A DNA stretch of 42,446 bases, taken from Escherichia phage sortkaff. Below, piece after piece: positions 2,029 to 30,349 of the stretch (the stretch's first letter is position 1; every line of letters begins with the position of its first letter). The stretch lies in sequence record MN850581.1, one strand, 5' to 3'. The notes under the pieces were generated by a model. It was not told the DNA's origin, searched no databases, and was given only the letters and a program-made list of their open reading frames with translations. The position numbers and the translations under genes are program-made.

Positions 2029-2219
2029 GGTTCTCTCTCTCGGTTGGTTGAAGGTGGGCGGCGTTGCTTCGTCGGTAGCCTCGGTTCGATTCCACTGGTA
2101 AGCGTTCTGCCTTGCGGCGAGTGTCCAGCGTTCGGCCTCACGGTTGGGAATCCTGACACTACGATCAAGCCCCTGCGTTGCTCCTCTCCGGCTGCATCCT
2201 GCCGCCGCCCTACGCAATA

Positions 2220-2248
2220 AAGATAACGGAAGCGTGATATTAATGCAA
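2220..2248 (-). promoter_or_regulatory. sigma70-like promoter (-35 TTGCAT, 17-bp spacer, -10 TATCTT) with ATCACGCTTCC in the spacer
   Basis: Minus-strand reading TTGCAT-taatATCACGCTTCCgt-TATCTT; near-identical in layout and spacer to the Dam promoter at 15484..15512. Confidence 0.45.
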
Positions 2249-2255
2249 GGATTAT

Positions 2256-2531
2256 TTATTCTTTATCATCACCCCATCGGCCAGGCTTTAGCAGGTTGCC
2301 GCGTCGCCAGTCGTCCCACACGAAGTACGGCCAGAATGCGAGCGTAAGCGCCAGGAAGAAAACGACAATCACCGCCACCAGCGCCGCCGCCAGTGGCACG
2401 AGCGACGAGGGCAGGGTGGCCGCCTCTTTGGCACAGGCGCGCCCCAGGTAGAGGCCAGCGCCCGCCCATATCTCGATCAGCATCCACGCCGCGCCGATCG
2501 CCAGGTAGGAGAAAATCATTTCGTAGAGCAT
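2256..2531 (-). CDS. hypothetical small membrane protein (two predicted TM helices)
   Basis: 91-aa ORF with hydrophobic stretches LAIGAAWMLIEIWAGAGLYL and LAAALVAVIVVFFLALTLAFW; its ATG overlaps the upstream stop (TGATG). Confidence 0.55.
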   Translation of the reverse strand: MLYEMIFSYLAIGAAWMLIEIWAGAGLYLGRACAKEAATLPSSLVPLAAALVAVIVVFFLALTLAFWPYFVWDDWRRGNLLKPGRWGDDKE

Positions 2532-2734
2532 CAGTAGATCCCATTGGTCAGAAGATACAGCCGCCCGTTTCGCATCAGGCGGATCATGTTGCTGGTCCCG
2601 TGGCCCATCGGGACCGGGTACAGGTTGCCATCTGCGGCGCGCATATACAGGCGGTTGCGGACGCGCCAGCCTTGCAGGGTGTGGCCCCGGCGTCCGTACT
2701 CGTCGCGCTTCACGTCCACGATCCGGCAGTACAC
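2531..2734 (-). CDS. hypothetical small protein
   Basis: 67-aa ORF with a GTG start and weak RBS. Confidence 0.3.
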   Translation of the reverse strand: MYCRIVDVKRDEYGRRGHTLQGWRVRNRLYMRAADGNLYPVPMGHGTSNMIRLMRNGRLYLLTNGIY

Positions 2735-2757
2735 CGGAGCCTAGTCAATCTGCATCA

Positions 2758-3138
2758 TCACCACTTCCTCCAGTCGGCAGGGTCGCGCGGGAGCTGCGCC
2801 AGGTCATGGTCCCACTTCGGGGCCTCGTCCGGCTTGCGGTAGCCGTCGTAAAGCATCTGGACCGCCGCGATCGGGTGAGCCGGGAGCGACTCATGGATGT
2901 ACAGATAGAACATGCCGCGCCGTCCCTCGTGGGTGATGCCGAAGCCGCTCCGGGTGTAGGTGTGGAGCGGCTGGTCGCCAGGTGCGGTCGGCATGGTGTC
3001 GGCGAGATACTGGATCGCGCTGGCGTGGAGTGGTGACGGCATCATGATTTGCGGCGTCCCTTCGGTCAGGGTGACGCGCTTGCCATCGTGCGGGCCTCCA
3101 ATCAGGAGCGCCTCGACTAAGTTTGCGGGGTGTTGCAT
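2758..3138 (-). CDS. hypothetical protein
   Basis: 126-aa ORF with RBS GGGAGGA 3 nt before the ATG. Confidence 0.65.
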   Translation of the reverse strand: MQHPANLVEALLIGGPHDGKRVTLTEGTPQIMMPSPLHASAIQYLADTMPTAPGDQPLHTYTRSGFGITHEGRRGMFYLYIHESLPAHPIAAVQMLYDGYRKPDEAPKWDHDLAQLPRDPADWRKW

Positions 3139-3222
3139 GGATCCTCCCAGTCTACGGGGTCGAATGATTAGCGCCTACTTGCGGCCCTCTGGGCTTCCAT
3201 CGTTCGGCGCTGGTGGTATCGG

Positions 3223-3573
3223 TCAGAATGGCGCGCCGTGGGTAGCGCGTAGCTCGTCTGGAGTCAGCGGCAGGCCGACCGGGCCGACTGGCCGCGATGC
3301 CTTGAGCTGGTTCCAGTAGGCAAACGGTCCAGCGTCGCGCCATGAATGATTGTACTTGCCGAAGGACAGGGAGCCGGAGCTGGTGGCCGGGCCATCGTAG
3401 CCGACGCGCTCAAGCTCTGCGAGCGGGACTAACATCAGCGTGTCCAGGGTGTGGACGCCATCGGGATAGCGGTAAACCTCGGCGCGCACGAGGGCAGGGA
3501 AGCGGACACGCTCGAAGCCGCTCCGCCCGTTGTAGCCGTAGGCGTCGGCGTGGAGGATCTCGATCATTTTCAT
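3223..3573 (-). CDS. hypothetical protein
   Basis: 116 aa from ATG-AAA-ATG (MKMIEIL...) within the longer six-frame ORF; purine-rich leader. Confidence 0.55.
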   Translation of the reverse strand: MKMIEILHADAYGYNGRSGFERVRFPALVRAEVYRYPDGVHTLDTLMLVPLAELERVGYDGPATSSGSLSFGKYNHSWRDAGPFAYWNQLKASRPVGPVGLPLTPDELRATHGAPF

Positions 3574-10926: not shown

Positions 10927-10949
10927 GGGGCCTTGCGGCCCCTTTTTTT
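10927..10949 (+). terminator. rho-independent terminator of the lysis operon
   Basis: GGGGCC-ttgc-GGCCCC followed by T7; the T-tract overlaps the stop of the convergent Ig-like gene. Confidence 0.75.
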
Positions 10950-11949
10950 ATGCGGTGACGGTGAGAGCGCAAGCCGTGGAGGTTGCAGTCTTTCCGCCCG
11001 CGTCAGTAACGCGGCAAGTGTAGGATCCTGCGTCGCCAGACGCCGCTCCGGTTTTCGTGAACGTGGCCGACGTTGCGCCGGAAACTGCTACGCCATCCTT
11101 AAGCCACTGATAGGTTAACGGGGCTACGCCGCCGGAAGCCTGCACAGGGCCGATCGAGATATTGCCACCAGTAGCGACGGAGGACGTCGCCGGGGGCTGC
11201 GTCGTAAACGCCGGGAGCGTGTTTAACGTCACGGCGCAAGCCTGAGACGTAACGGAGCCTTGCGGCACGGCGCTGTCCTTCACAATACACGTATACGTCG
11301 CATTGTCCCCGGTCGCGGCGGTTTTGGTATACGTGGCCGCCGTGGCCCCGGCGATGTTTACGCCGTTTTTCTGCCACTGGTAGGAGTACGGCGCGAGGCC
11401 GCCAGCCGCTGCGACGGTCAGCGTCAACGGGTCGCCGATGTAGACGGCTTTAGTCGGCGTCAGGTTGGTAGAGAGGGACAGGGCGACTTTGAGGCGGATC
11501 CGCTGGGAGTCCTTCGTCTGGCCCTGGCTGTCCGTCACGGTCACGTAATAGTCGCCGTTGTTGCTCGCCTGGTAGTTGGCGATCGCATAGCTCGGCGAGT
11601 TGGATCCGACGTTAACAGTCGTCCCGCCGGAGACTTTCTTCCACTGGTAGGACAGCGGAGCGATCCCCCCAGAGGCGGCGACGGTCAGCGTCTGCGTTGC
11701 GCCAGCCGCGACGAAGGTCGATCCGGCATCACCGCCAGCCACGCCGGGGAGGTCCTGCGTAAACACGATCGGAGGTAGCAGGTTCGGATCGTACTCGATG
11801 TAAAACATTTTCGTGGGGTCGAGGTTAGTCGGGTCAGCGTCTAACCAGATAAGATCTTTTTGCGGAGTCGCGCCGCTGGCCGGATCCTCGATCCGGGTGA
11901 CTTTCCAGCCCAGCAAGTCCGGGCGGTAGTAGCGATGCCAGTAACCCAT
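10948..11949 (-). CDS. protein with three tandem bacterial Ig-like domains after a 95-aa N-terminal domain
   Basis: 333 aa; three repeats of about 80 aa each containing P(L/Y)(S/T)YQW(K/Q/L)K and Y(Y/T)(V/C) motifs typical of Ig-like folds; RBS GAGGA; bounded by terminators on both sides. Confidence 0.8.
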   Translation of the reverse strand: MGYWHRYYRPDLLGWKVTRIEDPASGATPQKDLIWLDADPTNLDPTKMFYIEYDPNLLPPIVFTQDLPGVAGGDAGSTFVAAGATQTLTVAASGGIAPLSYQWKKVSGGTTVNVGSNSPSYAIANYQASNNGDYYVTVTDSQGQTKDSQRIRLKVALSLSTNLTPTKAVYIGDPLTLTVAAAGGLAPYSYQWQKNGVNIAGATAATYTKTAATGDNATYTCIVKDSAVPQGSVTSQACAVTLNTLPAFTTQPPATSSVATGGNISIGPVQASGGVAPLTYQWLKDGVAVSGATSATFTKTGAASGDAGSYTCRVTDAGGKTATSTACALTVTA

Positions 11950-22565: not shown

Positions 22566-24929
22566 CTACGGCCCGGAGGTGATACGCGGGCGCGTTACGA
22601 TCTGCTTGTACATCCTGATCTGAGTCTCCGCCGGGACCGCCGTCTGGATAGGGTCGGCAATGTCCACAACGATCGGCTTGCCCGTATCGTCCGGCGGCGT
22701 CTGGTACGGAGGGCGGACGACCGTCGTAACGAGGTCAGCGCCACCAGCGCCAGCGCCGGGGATAACGATCCGCGTACCGGGGGACAGCATCGTGGTATAG
22801 AGCCACGGGGATCCGGTACTCGTGCCGTTAGGCGTCAGCCATTGGGTGATCGACTTCTGGCCGACACTGGCGGCGAGGATCTTCGCCTGGTTCCCGGTCG
22901 GGAAGTACGCGCCAGCCTCGACGACCAGATAAGGCTTAAGCCCTACGATCCCATTAGGACCGCCCGCCGGGTCGTTGCTGCCATAGTCATAAGTCCAGAC
23001 CAGATCGCCCCGGTCAAACTCGCGGCCACACGGGAAGAAATTACCGTACCCGCCGTGGGAGGTGATATCAGGGAAAAACTGCTTAGACACTCCCCCCAGC
23101 ATGGCCCCCAGAGAGCCGTCAATATTGACGTACATCCGGGCCTCGACGTTACAGTTAATCATGTTGATATTGCTGTAACGGCATTTGCTCCACGCCTGCG
23201 TTACCGGGTTCAGGCTGTTCACGTTCATCATGTTCAGCACGGACTTAGTACGAATGTACTGGCCGGAGGAGGTGGTCCCGCCTGCGGAGTCGTCGCCGAT
23301 CGCGTCCAGCTCCCAGAAATTCACGTTAAACATGTCGAGCTGAGTCGCCACGCCGAAGATCGTCAGCTTATAGCAGTCGATGTTTTCCAGCTTAACGCGG
23401 TTGTCGTGCGGCGCACGGTTGACGCCTGCGGTCGGGTCGCCGGGGTCGGCTGCTACCGGGCAGTAAACGCGGCCAGTTTTCGTCTTAACGTTGCGGATCG
23501 TGTAGTTGCGCGGCGCGGACTGGCGAGGCGGCCCCCATTCCATATGGATGATTCGCAGATCGTGGACGTCGGTCGTCGCGTTGCCGACGGGTTCCCCGGT
23601 CACGCCGTCGATCACGAAGTCTTTACAGCCAGACGTGTAGATCCCGGCGGTGGTGATACCAGTCCCCACGGACTTGTTAACGTCAGGGTTTACGCAAACA
23701 TTCTCGATCACGAAGTCGCGGCCCATTTCAACGTGAATACACTGTTTACACGCATTAACAAGGACGTTACGGATCGTGAAGTTGCGCGCGTAGTTTTCAT
23801 CAGGCAGATCCCAGCCGTAAGGGCCTTTGCCCGCCACGCCGATCCCCAGCCCCCAGTTAGACGCAAAGCTGCCGGGGTTAATCCCGTCGATGTTGTCGAG
23901 GAGGATATTTTCGATCACGCATCCATCCTGGAAACACTGGTGGACCACGTTAAGCTCGATCCCGTCGCCCTGCATGTTGACGAAAGCGAGGTTGCGGAAG
24001 ATGCCGCGCGACATAAACGCATTCCCGCCCTGGTGAATGATGCCGTTATAGCCGTTGGTAAACAGACAACCGTCGATCTCGATCGTTCCCCAGATCTGCG
24101 GGCCGCCGGATTGTACGCCCTGGATGTTGATATGGCTGTTATTGCTGCCGCCGGGGATCCCGTCGTACCAGCAATCGAACATCCTCACGTCGCCGCCGTC
24201 ATGGCGCATACGGTGGCCGTTACGGCCATTAACGCCGCGTAGGGTGGTATTCTGACACCACATCGAACGACCGCGCCACGTACCGCCGATAACCTCGCAA
24301 TTCACGAAGCGGGGATCGTTGCCAGTCAGCGTCCAGTCGCCGCCGAAAATGCGAATATTGGAGGCAGTCAGGATCCCGTTAGTGGTCCCTTTCCAGCCGT
24401 CCGCCCGGACGTCGAGGCCGTTCGCGCTGGCGTAGTCAAACATGGCCTGTAAAGCTGCCGTTACAGTTGCGTAAGGTGCTTTGCCGACGAAGTTCCACGG
24501 CGTCACATAGCCGTTTAGCTGCTCCTGCACATTGCCGACGGGCGTCCCGACGTACTTCGCCCCGTTCTGGGACAGAAGCAAATTCCACATCTGGACGGGA
24601 TCATATTTAAAGAGATTGGAAAAGGTGAAGATCACGACGTCGTTTTGGTCTGCGACGACCATAGACGACTCAATTTTGGTGATCAGCTTGACCACTTGAC
24701 CATTCCAGACCGGGAAGCCTGCGACGTTCGTCCGCACGGGTTGCGGGATAGGCGTCAGGGTCCCGTCCTCGTTCTCGACGTAGACCTGGACCTGGTTCGC
24801 CGGGTTAGTGGGATCCGTGTCAGCCTTTCCCGCGTAGATCTTCCCGTTCGCCAGCGCGGCGAAACGGTCGTTGCGAAAGAAAGGTTGCGACGGCATTCCC
24901 AGATTGGAAAAGACCTCAAGATCTGCCAT
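22566..24929 (-). CDS. tailspike protein with P22 gp9-type N-terminal head-binding domain and right-handed beta-helix-like receptor-binding domain
   Basis: 787 aa; N-terminal about 110 aa align with P22 tailspike recalled from memory (FAALANGKIYAGKADTDPTNPANQVQVYVENEDG ... NGQVVKLI versus [34 protein letters not shown] ... NGQLVKIV); the rest is divergent, Gly/Asn-rich and repetitive. Confidence 0.85.
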   Translation of the reverse strand: MADLEVFSNLGMPSQPFFRNDRFAALANGKIYAGKADTDPTNPANQVQVYVENEDGTLTPIPQPVRTNVAGFPVWNGQVVKLITKIESSMVVADQNDVVIFTFSNLFKYDPVQMWNLLLSQNGAKYVGTPVGNVQEQLNGYVTPWNFVGKAPYATVTAALQAMFDYASANGLDVRADGWKGTTNGILTASNIRIFGGDWTLTGNDPRFVNCEVIGGTWRGRSMWCQNTTLRGVNGRNGHRMRHDGGDVRMFDCWYDGIPGGSNNSHINIQGVQSGGPQIWGTIEIDGCLFTNGYNGIIHQGGNAFMSRGIFRNLAFVNMQGDGIELNVVHQCFQDGCVIENILLDNIDGINPGSFASNWGLGIGVAGKGPYGWDLPDENYARNFTIRNVLVNACKQCIHVEMGRDFVIENVCVNPDVNKSVGTGITTAGIYTSGCKDFVIDGVTGEPVGNATTDVHDLRIIHMEWGPPRQSAPRNYTIRNVKTKTGRVYCPVAADPGDPTAGVNRAPHDNRVKLENIDCYKLTIFGVATQLDMFNVNFWELDAIGDDSAGGTTSSGQYIRTKSVLNMMNVNSLNPVTQAWSKCRYSNINMINCNVEARMYVNIDGSLGAMLGGVSKQFFPDITSHGGYGNFFPCGREFDRGDLVWTYDYGSNDPAGGPNGIVGLKPYLVVEAGAYFPTGNQAKILAASVGQKSITQWLTPNGTSTGSPWLYTTMLSPGTRIVIPGAGAGGADLVTTVVRPPYQTPPDDTGKPIVVDIADPIQTAVPAETQIRMYKQIVTRPRITSGP

Positions 24930-24967: not shown

Positions 24968-27900
24968 TTACTGCTGGTTATCGTCTGCGGCGGCTCGTCC
25001 GCCAGCGCCCGAAAAGAAGCCCACGATCCCGGCCCGGTTAACTGCTGCCTGTTCCTCCGGGGTCATGGCTGCGAATAGCTCGCGCCACTGGGGGGAATTT
25101 GCCATTTCGCGCTCGGCTTCGTTGACGAAAGTCCGGCCCGCCGGGGTGAGCTTGCCGGAGCTTTGCGCCGCTGCTGCCTGCATGAGTTTATTAAAATTCG
25201 TGCCGGATAGCACATTATCCGCAAGGACCGATCGCGGGACACGGTTCGCACGGGCCAGGCCCTGGGCTGCGGACAATGCGGCGTTACCTGCCGGACCTGC
25301 TGCGGCGTATGCTGCGGCATGTTTCCCGATCCACCCAGCCGCGCCGTAGAGCTTGGACAGCGGACCGCCAGCTCCCGGATCGTCGAAGCGTTTCACGAAG
25401 TCATTGATCGCCCCGGTGGTCGTGGTGAAACGTTGTGCGCGGTCGATACCATTCGCGACGCGGTAGATCTGCATGAAGCGGACGCGCTGCTCTCGCGGTA
25501 GGTGCTTCATAACGTTCCCCAGAGTGCCGTTAGCCTGCGCCGTCTTGTACCAGTCCACGAAGCCGGGGACGGCGAAAGTATTACGCGCGCTACGTGCGCC
25601 CAGGGTACGCTCCAGCGCGTTAGCCACTACCTCGCCTTTGAGGCTCTCCGGGGTTGCCGCCATCAGCTTGTCCCAGTCGCGGGCGCTGCCGCCTTTCTTG
25701 CCCAGGTTAAGGATCGCGTTTTGCACTTTCCCGGTGATCGAGTCGTTGAGGTTTTTCCCCAGCGTGTCGATCGCGATCGTCTCCAGGTCCTTACGACGCT
25801 TAACGAGCTGTTTCCCCACGTTCCAGTCGTCCGCCGCGCCGTACTTGGCCGCGATAGCCTCCTGATCCTCGGTTAATCGCGCGTAGAGCTGTTTTAGCGC
25901 TGCCTTGTCGGAGTCCACAAACGGACCGGATCGCGTGTTAAGCGCCTGGCCTACCTGTCGGCGGAGCTTGTCCAGACGGGCATAAGTCGGCGGCCCCATA
26001 GAGTCGTTAACAGGCTGGAGCCAGTCCAGCGCCTTACGCTCTGCCGCGTCCAGCGTCCCCAGCCCCTCTACGTCCGCCTTGTCCCAGATATGGCGTAACG
26101 TGTTGTTTGCGTCCACGGTTTCGTTTTTCGGGATTTTGGTCGCGATCTGGTTATAAACGTCGTCCGCCTGTTTCCCCAGGTCGTCAATAATGGCACGGGT
26201 GCGGGTGCTAAACGCCTGATCGATCGTCTGCGCGTTCATGGTCCCCATGCTGTCGATCAGCTCGTCCGCTTTCCCGGCCAGACGTCCGATCCCTTCGAGC
26301 TGCTGGGCTTCCAGATTGGAGCCTTTGCGGCTAACGAGCTGCTGGACCGTCGCGCGGAACTGAGGATCACGCGCATAAGCCGCCGGGGTCAGCGAATCCT
26401 CGATCCCCAGTTGCTGGGCGGTGCGCATCAGCTTTTTGTCCACGTCGGCCATGTTCGCAAGGTCGATCGTGTCCTGGGAGGCCCGGAGGTTCTCGCCGTT
26501 CGGCGCGGCCACGTTCTCGTCGCCAGTAAAGCGGAATTTGCTTTGATCGCGGGCCACGGCGTCCGAAATGTTGGCCTCGGTGGCCGCCGGGGTCGGTGCT
26601 GCATCGCCAGCGGCACGAGAAGCCGCTCCAGCTTCCTCCCAGACGCCCTTAGCCGCATTCCATACCTTGCTTGCTCCGCCGATAAGCGCACGGCCTACGG
26701 CCTCGCCAGCGGGCGCTAGTGCGATGTTAGTCAGCGTCTCCTCCGGGTCGCCACGGCCAGCCGCGATCGAGCCGGGAACGGCACGAGCCGCCGGAGCTGC
26801 CACCCATTTCTCCACGCCATCGGCGACGCGGGTCAAAACGCTGGCGACTTCTGGGCTTGCGCGCTCTGCGAGGCCCATCAGCTCCGTAGCTGCTTTGGCC
26901 TTACCTGCGGACGGCAACGGCGCGAGGAGGTCCCCGATCAGGGTCCCGATCTGCGCGTATTTGTCGGTAGGCGGTTCGAAGCCGGGGATCGTCCCCGGCG
27001 GGATGTTCGGCGCTTGCGTGTCCTGGTCAACGATACCCAGCGACTTACCCGCATCCGTGGCCGCGTTGGAAACCATATTGACCAGCGAGATCGGCGTGTT
27101 GAGGAGGTCGATCCCGGTCTGGACGATACCGCGCCCGCCCTGGTCGAGAGCGTGGAGCGCGGTCTGGCCTAACTGTTCCCAGTTTTGGGCGGCTTGCTCG
27201 TTGGGATCGACGGATCCAGGGGCCTGTCCGGCTTGATCAGCGCTGCCCGGCTCTCCGTTACCGTTCGGCGCTGCCGCCCCTCGTGCGACATTAGATCCCG
27301 CTTGATTAGGTGCATTGCCAGCGGGGACGGCTGCGACTTGCTGATCGGCCCCTCCGGCTCCGGCGGTTGCGCCATTTTCTCCAGCTCCGGCGGTAAAGGT
27401 TCCTGCTTCGTCGAACTGGTCGAAAAAGTTACCAGAAGATTTAGAGCCATCCCGGCGGGCGCTGGTTGCGCGCTGAATAGGTTCGCCGCTATCGCCAGCC
27501 CCTCGACTAGTCCACTCGTTAAAACGTTCATCCACATATTGACGCCCCTCCGGGCCGGGGGTTGCCTGGCCCGCCAGTTGTTTGTCTACGTTGCCGGGGC
27601 CGTCGTGGTAAGCCTGGAGCGCAAGGCCCCAGTCTCCGTAACGCTGGTACATCTGGGAAAGGTACTGAGCCCCGGCGTCAGCCTGGAGCGCCGGATCGCT
27701 CTTGAGAGCGTTCCAGTCGTAACCCATATCCTCCGCCGTGCCTTTCATGACCTGCGTTAAACCGTGCGCGCCTTTGCTGGAGACGGCGGACGTAGGATCC
27801 GCCGTGCCGCCCGTTTCCTTGCTCGCGAGTGCCGTCATGATGCCAGCGGGTAGGCCCCATCGTGCCCCGGCGCTCTCCAGTAAATCAGAATACCCGCCGC

Positions 27901-27991
27901 CCGACGATCCCGCTTGAGACGGAATCTGATTAGGGAGCGCCGTCGCATTTTTCGGCATGTTCTGATCAAACTGGTCGAAGAAATTCGCCAT
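24968..27991 (-). CDS. internal virion / ejection protein with N-terminal soluble lytic transglycosylase (SLT) domain
   Basis: 1007 aa; SLT motifs KETGG ... GAHGLTQVM ... AGAQYL ... AYHDGPGNV; Ala/Gly/Gln-rich remainder; occupies the position of P22 gene 16. Confidence 0.8.
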   Translation of the reverse strand: MANFFDQFDQNMPKNATALPNQIPSQAGSSGGGYSDLLESAGARWGLPAGIMTALASKETGGTADPTSAVSSKGAHGLTQVMKGTAEDMGYDWNALKSDPALQADAGAQYLSQMYQRYGDWGLALQAYHDGPGNVDKQLAGQATPGPEGRQYVDERFNEWTSRGAGDSGEPIQRATSARRDGSKSSGNFFDQFDEAGTFTAGAGENGATAGAGGADQQVAAVPAGNAPNQAGSNVARGAAAPNGNGEPGSADQAGQAPGSVDPNEQAAQNWEQLGQTALHALDQGGRGIVQTGIDLLNTPISLVNMVSNAATDAGKSLGIVDQDTQAPNIPPGTIPGFEPPTDKYAQIGTLIGDLLAPLPSAGKAKAATELMGLAERASPEVASVLTRVADGVEKWVAAPAARAVPGSIAAGRGDPEETLTNIALAPAGEAVGRALIGGASKVWNAAKGVWEEAGAASRAAGDAAPTPAATEANISDAVARDQSKFRFTGDENVAAPNGENLRASQDTIDLANMADVDKKLMRTAQQLGIEDSLTPAAYARDPQFRATVQQLVSRKGSNLEAQQLEGIGRLAGKADELIDSMGTMNAQTIDQAFSTRTRAIIDDLGKQADDVYNQIATKIPKNETVDANNTLRHIWDKADVEGLGTLDAAERKALDWLQPVNDSMGPPTYARLDKLRRQVGQALNTRSGPFVDSDKAALKQLYARLTEDQEAIAAKYGAADDWNVGKQLVKRRKDLETIAIDTLGKNLNDSITGKVQNAILNLGKKGGSARDWDKLMAATPESLKGEVVANALERTLGARSARNTFAVPGFVDWYKTAQANGTLGNVMKHLPREQRVRFMQIYRVANGIDRAQRFTTTTGAINDFVKRFDDPGAGGPLSKLYGAAGWIGKHAAAYAAAGPAGNAALSAAQGLARANRVPRSVLADNVLSGTNFNKLMQAAAAQSSGKLTPAGRTFVNEAEREMANSPQWRELFAAMTPEEQAAVNRAGIVGFFSGAGGRAAADDNQQ

Positions 27992-29308
27992 TTAAAGCCC
28001 CTCCGGTAAAAATCCGAATTTTGCCTTAAATTGCTCTTTACGGGTAGGGGTAGGCTCCGCATAAAGTGCATCGATCGCCGCCTGCGCATTTTGAACGGGC
28101 ATCCCCCCAGCCGAAAGCTGGCCGACTGCTGCGGTCTTGCTGTCGTCGATCGCAATGTCGCGCTTGTACGCTTCGACGCGCCCGCCCTGCGATTTCTCGA
28201 TCGCGTCCTTGCCTTTGCTGAGGGCGTCAACGTAGCGCTGCATGACGTCTTTTAGCTGCTGCTCGCTCATGGTTCGCGGGTCTGCGCTGATCAGTGCCTG
28301 AGCTGCGGCGCGGCCCTCCTGCTCGGTTACGGGGCCAGTACCGCGCAAAGCCTGAATACCCGCGACGCGGGCCTGGTCTTTCATCTGGTTAAACTGGTTC
28401 ATGATTTCCGCCGTAGCGTCACCGCCACCAGTGGCCGCACTCCATGCCCTGTTACCCAGACCGTTGATCCCGGTAACGAAGCCCAGATCCTTACGCTCAA
28501 GCAAGCGTTTCGCCTGGTCGATCGCCGTGTCGATCGGCGCGAGCGTGGTCTGGTACGTCTGGAGAAAATCGCGTTTCGTGTTGAGCTGGTCGGCCTGCAT
28601 CTTGCTTTGTTGCTGGAGCAATTTCGAGCGCTCAATGTCGTTTTTCTCCTGAGAGATCCGCGTGTTAAGGCGCTCCGTTTGCAGACCGATGTAACGGAGG
28701 TTACGGTCCGCCGCGTTACTGGCCGCCGTGACGTCCTGGCCCCGGATCGTGGTCTGGTTCTTCATGACCTCTTTCGCGTAGTCCAGTTGATCCTTGCTGG
28801 TATTGCTCGCCAGGTGGAGCGCCTGCACGGAGCGACGGAAGCCGTCCGGGTCGGTCGCTGCGGCCTGATAGGCTTTCTGCGGGTCGATACCCAGCGCCTT
28901 AAGCGCGTCCGCGTTCTGCTGGACAAACTGCTGGGTCTGCTCCGGCCCCTGCGAGAGCGCGACGTCTGCCTGGCTGGCGAGCTGCGCGCCCTGCTGCTGG
29001 CGGATCCCGTCCATCATGCCTAAGCGCTTTTGTAGCGCCTCGATCTGGTTCGGGTACTTGTACGCCAGCGCCTGCAATTTCGACGGATCACCCTGCGCGG
29101 CCTGCCAGTCAGCATTGAATTGCTTCATTTGCTCCTGTTGCTGCTGGGCGGCCTGCATTGCCATTCCCTGCTGTCGGTTCTGGATCGCCGCTGCGGTGTT
29201 CTGCTGGATCTGGCCGTAGTTGTTTAGCGTGTCCTGCGCGCCCTGCTGAATGATCCCGATATTCTGCGCGAAGGATCCAACGTTGGGATCAGTGCCGAAA
29301 ATAGCCAT
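27992..29308 (-). CDS. ejection protein (P22 gp20-like by position and size), Gln-rich coiled coil
   Basis: 438-aa ORF contiguous with neighbours; Q-rich helical sequence; assignment by synteny only. Confidence 0.6.
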   Translation of the reverse strand: MAIFGTDPNVGSFAQNIGIIQQGAQDTLNNYGQIQQNTAAAIQNRQQGMAMQAAQQQQEQMKQFNADWQAAQGDPSKLQALAYKYPNQIEALQKRLGMMDGIRQQQGAQLASQADVALSQGPEQTQQFVQQNADALKALGIDPQKAYQAAATDPDGFRRSVQALHLASNTSKDQLDYAKEVMKNQTTIRGQDVTAASNAADRNLRYIGLQTERLNTRISQEKNDIERSKLLQQQSKMQADQLNTKRDFLQTYQTTLAPIDTAIDQAKRLLERKDLGFVTGINGLGNRAWSAATGGGDATAEIMNQFNQMKDQARVAGIQALRGTGPVTEQEGRAAAQALISADPRTMSEQQLKDVMQRYVDALSKGKDAIEKSQGGRVEAYKRDIAIDDSKTAAVGQLSAGGMPVQNAQAAIDALYAEPTPTRKEQFKAKFGFLPEGL

Positions 29309-29970
29309 TAGATAAAGCTCCCGAACATATTACCGAACATGGAGGCCCCGGTGTTCATATCCTGCGCCACGCCCTGATTAAGCGCATTCTGGCTGTAGCC
29401 TGCCACCTGCCACGGCAAGGCCGCTTTAGCCGCGTTTACGTTGCCTTTCTGGCCCTGTAGCGCGTTAAGGGCGTTGGTCCCTTGTGCCGCTGCTGCGGAC
29501 TGCGCGCCAGCGCCGGACAGTCCCACGTTAGCCAGGCCCATAAGCTGGTTATACATGTCTTGTTGCTGCGCCGTCATTTGCGCGAGGTAGTTCTGGCCCA
29601 GCGTCGGCGCGATCGTGGTCAGGGAGTTAGCCGTGGCCGCCCCACCTAAGTTGCCCGTAGCCTCTGCGCTGGCTAACAGGGAGTTACGCGCCTGGCCCTC
29701 CTGCATTTTGTACTCATTGCCGCCGTAATACTGCTGGAGCGTTTTCTCCCGATCGATCGGCTGTCCCGCGATCGCGATAAGGTCAGGTAGCGCGCCCGTC
29801 CCGGCTTCGCGGAAAGGCGAGAGCCAGGCGTCTTGACGGTTCATTAAGTCGCGCTGCCAGTCCATTTGTTTGTCGAGGCTCTTTTGTTGCTGCTTCGCCG
29901 CTTTATTCGCGCCGATGCCGCCTAAGATACCGCCGACGGCGTTACCAATTCCGCTAACAATGCCGCCCAT
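29308..29970 (-). CDS. ejection protein (P22 gp7-like by position)
   Basis: 220 aa, Gly-rich N-terminus; assignment by synteny. Confidence 0.55.
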   Translation of the reverse strand: MGGIVSGIGNAVGGILGGIGANKAAKQQQKSLDKQMDWQRDLMNRQDAWLSPFREAGTGALPDLIAIAGQPIDREKTLQQYYGGNEYKMQEGQARNSLLASAEATGNLGGAATANSLTTIAPTLGQNYLAQMTAQQQDMYNQLMGLANVGLSGAGAQSAAAAQGTNALNALQGQKGNVNAAKAALPWQVAGYSQNALNQGVAQDMNTGASMFGNMFGSFI

Positions 29971-30349
29971 CTGGTGGCCTCCTCATGAAAATCATTTGCA
30001 CTTTTTGCCCGGTGATCAATTCTACTTGCTGCGGGTCGCTTTCAACAAATCCAAAGCGGCGCAAACAATTTCGGACGCCCTCGTGACCTGGGAGGATCGG
30101 CGCTCGGATAGGGACGCTGCCAAACTTCGCCATAAAGTCCGCCAGCGCCTCCCTAACGTACTTTCGGAAGCCGGGACGCATTGCCATATGCCCGTCCAGT
30201 CCGCCCTCCTCGTTGGCGTTGATGGCGAATATGCCGCACTCTCCCCATAGCCAGTATGTGCATACATCGTTTTCCGGCCATTCAGGGACGCCCCACGCGC
30301 GCATAAGGGCCGCGCCGTAGTCCTCCGGGACCTGCCTTAAGCCGATCAC
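29954..30349 (-). CDS. virion protein (P22 gp14-like by position)
   Basis: 131-aa ORF overlapping neighbours; assignment by synteny. Confidence 0.5.
   Translation of the reverse strand: MIGLRQVPEDYGAALMRAWGVPEWPENDVCTYWLWGECGIFAINANEEGGLDGHMAMRPGFRKYVREALADFMAKFGSVPIRAPILPGHEGVRNCLRRFGFVESDPQQVELITGQKVQMIFMRRPPDGRHC

Follow-up and report, generated by a model that had tools for sequence, protein, structure and literature searches.

Escherichia phage sortkaff (sequence record MN850581.1, a stretch of 42,446 nucleotides that is called the window here) is a Sortsnevirus-like, P22-like podophage. The gene that precedes its tailspike gene encodes a 1007 amino acid (aa) ejection protein, composed of an N-terminal SLT lytic-transglycosylase domain and a body related to gp16 of phage P22. 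We found that this SLT-gp16 protein carries two copies of the heptapeptide NFFDQFD, one on each side of the SLT domain, that the two copies covary among homologues, and that in related phages the segment holding them is linked to the C-terminal half of the adjacent gp20-like protein. The fusion of an SLT domain to gp16 is already known and annotated and is shared with many other phages; what is new is the paired covarying motif together with its linkage to the gp20 C-half, which amounts to a modest lead. Our best explanation is that of an SLT-gp16 ejection protein of a P22-like podophage in which the motif pair docks the N-terminal module on the C-terminal half of gp20. We lean towards this explanation as a whole with a confidence slightly better than even; the bivalent docking of the N-terminal module, taken alone, is tentative, and we would not go as far as to call it probable.

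The sequence-only reading had placed an open reading frame (ORF) of 1007 aa at 24968-27991, which stands with the correction that it is read from the minus strand. Homologues keep the N-terminus MAN[FVI]FDQFDQNMP in the alignment, and public proteins at 98–99% identity to the 1007 aa protein exist. The gene is organized as follows (positions in the window):

24968..27991, minus strand: whole gene, SLT-gp16-type ejection ('DNA transfer') protein, 1007 aa (ORF list and translation, PHROG 770, Pfam SLT)
27998..28004, minus strand: Shine-Dalgarno sequence GGAGGGG, 7 nucleotides upstream of the ATG and within the 3' end of the gp20-like gene
27989-27991, minus strand: ATG of the SLT-gp16 gene, abutting the stop codon of the gp20-like gene
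27893..27991, minus strand: N-terminal leader, aa 1-33, disordered and Q/N/P/G-rich, with a conserved LPNQ
27965..27985, minus strand: motif copy 1, NFFDQFD, aa 3-9, in the N-terminal leader
27497..27892, minus strand: SLT lytic-transglycosylase domain, aa 34-165 (Pfam PF01464, structure prediction, Foldseek)
27815..27817, minus strand: codon of the predicted catalytic glutamate E59 (in KETGG), invariant in 29 homologues
27182..27496, minus strand: low-complexity A/G/Q/N-rich linker, aa 166-270, which holds motif copy 2 and is predicted to be disordered
27410..27430, minus strand: motif copy 2, NFFDQFD, aa 188-194, about 25 aa past the SLT domain
24971..27181, minus strand: gp16-like body, aa 271-1007 (PHROG 770, BLASTP to P22 gp16, structure prediction)
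24968-24970, minus strand: stop codon of the SLT-gp16 gene

Translated in all six frames, the window contains NFFDQFD at exactly two sites, both in this protein (the motif peptides of the window protein are MANFFDQFDQNMPK and SSGNFFDQFDEAG). The sequence-only reading had noticed both copies and located the first one correctly; the second it had assigned to the extreme C-terminus, at 24980-25000, where the DNA encodes GRAAADD. The second copy is actually found at aa 188-194, and with the first at aa 3-9 the motif therefore brackets the SLT domain and not the whole protein. NFFDQFD is the sole repeated peptide of at least six residues in the 1007 aa, and the composition of the protein would lead us to expect 2.4e-7 further occurrences by chance. 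Chance repetition is ruled out by this expectation and by the uniqueness of the repeat. At the DNA level, 17 of the 21 positions are identical between the copies, and four of the seven codons differ, at synonymous third positions. Because the copies differ at synonymous sites, we reject a recent gene conversion.

An alignment of homologues gave the general motif form N-Φ-F-[D/A]-Q-[F/Y/I]. Nearly every SLT-gp16 protein has the motif twice, and the 14 variant classes include the following (copy 1, then copy 2):

NFFDQFD, NFFDQFD
NVFDQFD, NVFDQFG
NIFDQFD, NIFDQFG
NPFAQFA, NPFAQFS
NMFAQYA, NLFAEYA
NMFAKYV, NMFGQYA
NPFAQLE, NPFAQIE

The two copies within a protein share 4.43 of the five variable core positions, compared to 2.89 with shuffled partners, and the observed value was reached in none of 20000 shuffles. 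The linker around copy 2 (aa 166-270) differs in sequence and length between homologues, and in the conservation profile copy 2 forms an island of conservation inside it. Both copies lie in segments for which AlphaFold2 (AF2) predicts disorder: the predicted local distance difference test score (pLDDT) is ~30 at copy 1 and ~26 at copy 2, and it stays below 50 throughout the linker.

The placement of the copies relative to the SLT domain is flexible. They flank the domain in the lineage of the window and stand in tandem, about 24 aa apart, past the domain in Sf101-like proteins. The proteins P0096, P0099 and P0107 have another motif, GPWEKYQ...GPWSKYQ, in tandem ahead of the SLT domain. Many SLT-less gp16-like proteins also open with an aromatic mini-motif specific to their lineage, in two copies or sometimes three, for example LPxGFVLD (E212 and Kapi1 included), GPWEKYQ, IDPFDTI, WDNDPI, TNSFGS or DFSFA. 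Mini-motif carriers among the representatives are P0096, P0099, P0107, P0119, P0128, P0153, P0174, P0191, P0202, P0219, P0221, P0229 and others; in the SLT-less P0229, two copies of NVFDLLGE stand 15 aa apart and come close to the Sortsne motif NVFDQFGE. A full-text search found no paper with the motif strings, and the searched literature contains no description of N-terminal mini-motif pairs.

Flexible placement, a conservation island and disorder are what one expects of a short linear motif that is selected at the protein level. The motif probably forms an N-capped amphipathic helical turn. The simplest history would start from an ancestor with the motif pair at its N-terminus; SLT domains would have entered later, between the two copies, ahead of them or past them. 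We also considered the motif as a structural element of the SLT fold or as the product of a recent DNA duplication, and both fit poorly with the conservation, the disorder and the variable placement.

The motif pair is linked to gp20. In Sf101-like loci, a block consisting of the gp20 C-half, the SLT domain and both motifs stays 95–100% identical, while the N-half of gp20 falls to 43–74% and gp16 beyond about aa 206-220 is replaced. An alignment of gp20 C-halves succeeds only among phages with an SLT domain (window, Sf101, PfAn1), and the gp20 proteins of P22, E212 and Kapi1 match those of the SLT phages in the N-half only. The Sf6 gp16 protein is packaged in P22 particles but does not function unless Sf6 gp20 accompanies it (Leavitt et al. 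2024, PMC10883804). From these Sf6/P22 genetics it follows that packaging is promiscuous and the gp16-gp20 pairing specific. The N-terminus of Sf6 gp16 is of yet another type. In the Sf101-like IMG/VR loci L021-L074, the mosaic block has sharp bounds, from mid-gp20 to just past the second motif (gp20 ~2160-3491, gp16 from 3492), and both of its flanks are exchanged among prophages. This clean recombination boundary just past the second motif could guide the design of chimeric ejection proteins.

We envisage a protein of three parts: an N-terminal module (leader, SLT domain and the start of the linker, ~215 aa in all), a disordered A/G/Q-rich linker, and the body homologous to P22 gp16. After adsorption, this protein would exit the capsid along with the gp7- and gp20-like proteins. 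Its SLT domain, with E59 as the catalytic residue, would cleave peptidoglycan locally and so make a passage for the trans-periplasmic conduit, and the gp16 body would take part in the inner-membrane end of that conduit, as in P22 and T7. Selection would keep the motif in two copies within disordered segments, and with these two copies the N-terminal module would dock on the C-half of its own gp20-like tunnel protein. Functionally, such docking would correspond to the T7 gp16 'molecular tape' past the SLT domain, that is residues 157-228, which tape gp15 subunits together (PMC8954989). The T7 tape region shows an aromatic motif, P-F-[AGS]-x-x-[FY]-[WY], that is conserved across Studiervirinae (in the forms KPFAKDFW, TPYAKDFW, QPFGKDYW and ESFGEMFY), and an aromatic motif is found at a comparable distance past the SLT domain in the window protein and in T7 gp16.

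Several points weigh against this explanation. The variant classes in the covariation test are phylogenetically related. The adjacency of the abutting gp20 and gp16 genes could alone account for their linkage, which makes the docking role an inference. When a chimera of gp20, a GS linker and gp16 residues 1-215 was modelled with AF2, the pLDDT of copy 2 rose from ~26 to at least 50 with formation of a short helix, a weak signal that stays below 70, was read from pLDDT and secondary structure and could stem from the different alignment; copy 1 stayed disordered. The post-SLT region does not align with the T7 tape by BLAST, and for this reason the resemblance to the T7 motif is a lead and not an established homology. 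The body shows no strong transmembrane segment in a hydropathy scan (top Kyte-Doolittle 19-mer 1.12), a result that neither supports nor excludes a peripheral or refolding-dependent membrane insertion.

A broader proposal, which we regard as doubtful, is that the paired, lineage-specific aromatic mini-motifs at or near the N-terminus of gp16-type proteins (such as NFFDQFD, NPFAQIE, GPWEKYQ, LPxGFVLD, IDPFDTI) constitute a family-wide 'pairing code' that docks each gp16 on the C-half of its cognate gp20. If such a code existed, it would explain the need to exchange gp16 and gp20 jointly in P22 hybrids, and the 'molecular tape' of T7 gp16 would be one case of a general podovirus mechanism. The motif pair itself is a small, mutable handle on questions about the P22-type ejectosome, such as gp16-gp20 matching and the addressing of ejection proteins (E-proteins).

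The SLT domain at the N-terminus had been proposed from four short strings, and we could confirm it. All four are present (KETGG at 58-62, GLTQVM at 77-82, AGAQYL at 106-111 and AYHDGPG at 127-133), and aa 38-142 score 61.8 bits with the Pfam family SLT (PF01464), above its cutoff of 21.3 (E 5.6e-17). The motifs of family-1 lytic transglycosylases can be recognized as E59-T60, G77-L-T-Q80 and A127-Y-H-D-G131. Among 29 homologues, E59 and Y128 are invariant and Q80 is nearly so, other motif residues are likewise invariant or close to it, and E59 is aligned to the catalytic-motif glutamate of Slt70 ('QES') and of T7 gp16 ('TES'). An AF2 model based on the 29-sequence alignment displays a confident SLT fold at residues 33-163 (pLDDT ~70-91). 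The top solved-structure match of this model in Foldseek is the N-terminal part of T7 gp16 (gp16-N, 7k5c_B), slightly ahead of MltF and Slt; the Foldseek probability is 1.0 for all three, and the root-mean-square deviation is 2-4 Å over ~118-140 columns for MltF and Slt. When phmmer was run against the PDB, the SLT domain alone gave only weak matches to Slt70 and MltE, and the whole 1007 aa protein gave none. The domain is an intact lysozyme-like lytic-transglycosylase module with E59 as its predicted catalytic residue and a putative enzymatic activity.

The sequence-only reading had described the protein as resembling T7 gp16 rather than P22 gp16. This is adequate for the architecture and for the top structure match; the body, however, is that of P22 gp16. 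Like the window protein, T7 gp16 (PHROG 342) has an N-terminal SLT domain with a catalytic glutamate, an extended segment with an aromatic PF-type motif and a large C-terminal part, and its gene is the third in a three-gene ejection operon, as in the window. By BLASTP, the window protein and T7 gp16 are 25% identical over 173 aa, confined to the SLT region, and E. coli Slt70 is about equally distant. There is no detectable similarity to the C-terminal body of T7 gp16, since BLASTP finds none past the SLT domain and the Foldseek match to 7k5c_B is limited to the N-terminal region. The window protein does not match PHROG 342 at E <= 1e-3; this profile is matched by the N-module of Sf101 (E 3.9e-24) and by T7 gp16 itself. 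Because T7 gp16 is no closer than the cellular Slt70, a recent T7 origin is not indicated. In phage K1F, gene 16 (L080:229-1128) differs from T7 gene 16 (L008) in having a non-SLT N-domain, yet the tape region with ESFGEMFY is kept, so that the enzymatic head is swappable in T7-like phages too.

The gp16-like body is a true homologue of P22 gp16. PHROG 770 ('DNA transfer protein') matches aa 142-959 along profile positions 3-667 of 668 (E 6.8e-113), and P22 gp16 itself belongs to PHROG 770 (E 2.3e-266). Direct BLASTP similarity to P22 gp16 is weak and collinear: aa 275-358 align with P22 residues 65-134 (32% over 84 aa, pairwise E 2e-6), and residues 577-796 align with P22 residues 255-474 at 19% identity. 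Sf101 bridges the two proteins, being 81% identical to P22 gp16 and 35% to the window protein. The gene order is the same in P22 and in the window. On the other hand, P22 gp16 has a length of 609 aa and no SLT domain, its overall identity to the window protein is very low, and its first ~52 residues are another N-terminal module (MKVTANGKTFNFPDGT...VDEYFAGQ). In the AF2 model, pLDDT is below 50 at residues 1-32 and 164-515, and residues 1-32 and 164-262 are without predicted secondary structure. A confident helical domain follows at residues ~516-855, for which Foldseek returned no solved relative.

A lytic transglycosylase that travels in the virion on an ejection protein is textbook knowledge, with T7 gp16 as the example, and the gene is already annotated in sister phages; the fusion itself therefore adds little. 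The sequence-only reading had taken it as a sign of domain shuffling between podovirus lineages. This is not supported: the fusion is widespread in P22-like phages, and its similarity to T7 gp16 is low. An SLT domain is standard in the full-length close homologues of Sortsnevirus, Murrayvirus and Skarpretter-like phages, every one of which carries it, and GenBank labels the genes of relatives 'transglycosylase', 'lytic transglycosylase' or 'DNA transfer protein'. The module is also present in Skarpretter, C130_2, Kosakonia phages, Stutzerimonas phage STP9, Pseudomonas phage PfAn1 and Ralstonia phage RSK1, as well as in Sf101, IME10 and dozens of Sf101-like prophages of the genus Lederbergvirus, to which P22 itself belongs. 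The other Lederbergviruses E212 and Kapi1 have no SLT domain at the gp16 position. A search with aa 270-1007 against 1.84 billion cluster representatives gave 802 related clusters at E <= 1e-3. Among the best 150 representatives, at least 18 have an SLT-like N-domain, as counted with a hidden Markov model from our own alignment, which undercounts divergent SLT domains of the RSK1/PfAn1 type by a few carriers. The SLT domain is thus a recurrent minority option in the gp16 family. This corrects a generalisation in a recent review, according to which P22-like phages are without a gp16 transglycosylase: the statement holds for P22, Sf6, HK620 and CUS-3 and fails for the P22-like group overall, in which a sizeable minority, including members of P22's own genus, carry one.

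The closest relatives are the SLT-gp16 proteins of Sortsnevirus and Murrayvirus (IME279, Sortsne, KMB41, Lumpael, IME_EC2), which agree with the window protein in gene, position, architecture and the sites of the motif pair. They differ from it merely in the length of the A/G-rich linker and in the second motif residue (F, V or I). The DNA identity to the window gene ranges from 90.6% in Klebsiella phage IME279, its nearest DNA relative, down to ~76%. No experimental study of these proteins was found in the searched literature. In Escherichia phage Sortsne (MK651787, L003:2989-6036), the ortholog is annotated as three coding sequences, two of them 'hypothetical' and one a 'putative lytic transglycosylase' from an internal Met, yet the frame is continuous over 1015 aa. 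The split is probably an annotation artefact. The truncated protein-database entries P0030-P0032 resemble this split annotation.

The shuffling that can be demonstrated falls within the P22-like phages, as illustrated by gp13 of Sf101. Residues 1-220 of this protein are the SLT module, which is 55% identical to window aa 34-194, and residues 221-353 are 81% identical to P22 gp16 53-189. The C-terminal part resembles window aa 495-871 at ~35% identity (query positions 308-684 in a search with aa 188-1007). Sf101 gp13 differs from the window protein in being without an N-terminal leader and in having both copies of its related motif, NPFAQ[LI]E, past the SLT domain. Given this composition, the SLT module is a swappable cassette that replaces the first ~52 residues of P22 gp16. 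The Sf101-like proteins P0044-P0083 carry the precomputed Pfam accession PF26808. In Ralstonia phage RSK1, gp16 (L009:1733-5575, 1280 aa) has a divergent SLT domain followed by two units of ~35 aa (L..AF.NG.M...DA..F.QDVK.G...LP.G); units of this type also open the SLT-less proteins P0148, P0182, P0183, P0189, P0196 and P0220.

Instead of docking on gp20, the motif pair could serve capsid targeting, which we consider unlikely. It would then bind the scaffolding core or the coat protein during procapsid assembly and bring about packaging, akin to T4 IPIII, whose first ten residues target fusion proteins into capsids (cited in PMC8402733). The paired motifs do stand at the extreme N-terminus in most members of the gp16 family, and the E-proteins of P22 need the scaffolding protein for their incorporation, for which N-terminal fragments of gp7 and gp20 suffice (PMC8402733). 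The window phage and Sf101 share both scaffold type (35% identity) and motif type, and P22 differs in both; the window peptide also resembles a capsid-targeting sequence in being N-terminal, aromatic and acidic, which is a resemblance only. However, foreign gp16 proteins at 22–26% identity, including that of Sf6, are incorporated in P22 particles (PMC10883804), so that packaging can do without a lineage-specific code. In addition, amber fragment 1-171 of P22 gp16 was not detected in particles (PMC8402733), the motif block is linked to the gp20 C-half and not to head genes, and copy 2 of the window protein sits 188 residues into the chain.

The remaining alternatives are improbable. If a protease of the host or the phage cut at or near the motifs and so released the SLT domain from the gp16 body, in the periplasm or inside the capsid, it would find them in exposed disordered segments on both sides of a globular domain, and P22 gp7 does lose its first 20 residues to the host protease OpdA (P22 record note; PMC8402733). 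Excision of the SLT domain cannot be the common outcome, however, since both copies are downstream of it in the Sf101 type and both upstream in the GPWEKYQ type. Paired motifs are also present in SLT-less relatives, and the motifs contain no recognisable protease consensus. It is about as improbable, perhaps a shade more so, that the repeats are a mere DNA footprint of the insertion or excision of an SLT cassette by recombination at short direct repeats, with no role at the protein level. The copies flank the SLT domain exactly, and recombination between them would remove it in frame. The phage has recombination genes of the Erf-like and exonuclease VIII-like types, and gp16 genes are highly mosaic. 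Against this, the differences between the two DNA copies are restricted to synonymous positions, many lineages preserve the amino acid motif and show its covariation, in other lineages the SLT domain does not lie between the copies, and we found no SLT-less relative beginning with MANFFDQFDEAG. The least credible alternative is that this phage, as an exception among P22-like phages, recently acquired its SLT domain from a T7-like podovirus by inter-lineage shuffling. The T7-like architecture and the top match to T7 gp16-N would agree with it, and the N-terminal FDQFDQNMP aligns with MDKYDKNVP of T7. It is at odds with the identity of only 25% to T7 gp16, which leaves the domain about as close to cellular Slt70, with the missing PHROG 342 match of the window protein, and with the wide and old distribution of the fusion in P22-like phages of Enterobacteriaceae, Pseudomonas and Ralstonia.

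The neighbourhood of the gene agrees with the position of P22 gene 16 that the sequence-only reading had assigned to it. The window contains a syntenic virion module of the P22 type (scaffold, coat, gp4-like, gp10-like, needle, gp7-like, gp20-like, SLT-gp16 gene, tailspike), and the order gp7, gp20, gp16 before the tailspike agrees with the P22 record. The flanking genes are:

29308..29970, minus strand: gp7-like ejection protein, 220 aa (Pfam P22_gp7, PHROG 598)
27992..29308, minus strand: gp20-like ejection protein, 438 aa (Pfam Inj_translocase, PHROG 2534), the proposed partner of the N-terminal module
22566..24929, minus strand: tailspike, the downstream neighbour (P22-type Head_binding domain in Pfam, E 1.3e-34; colanidase-type body in PHROG 6117, E 1e-242)

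The combination of a P22 head-binding domain with a colanic-acid-degradation body in the tailspike suggests a capsule or colanic acid as receptor. A 131 aa ORF with a GTG start (29954-30349, minus strand) lies at the position of P22 gene 14 and overlaps the ends of the needle and gp7-like genes; its sole match is PHROG 17333, a group of unknown function. Another ORF, of 333 aa (10948-11949, minus strand), contains repeated stretches that match Ig-like 'Hoc-like head decoration' and tail-protein PHROGs, and sits outside the main virion gene block.

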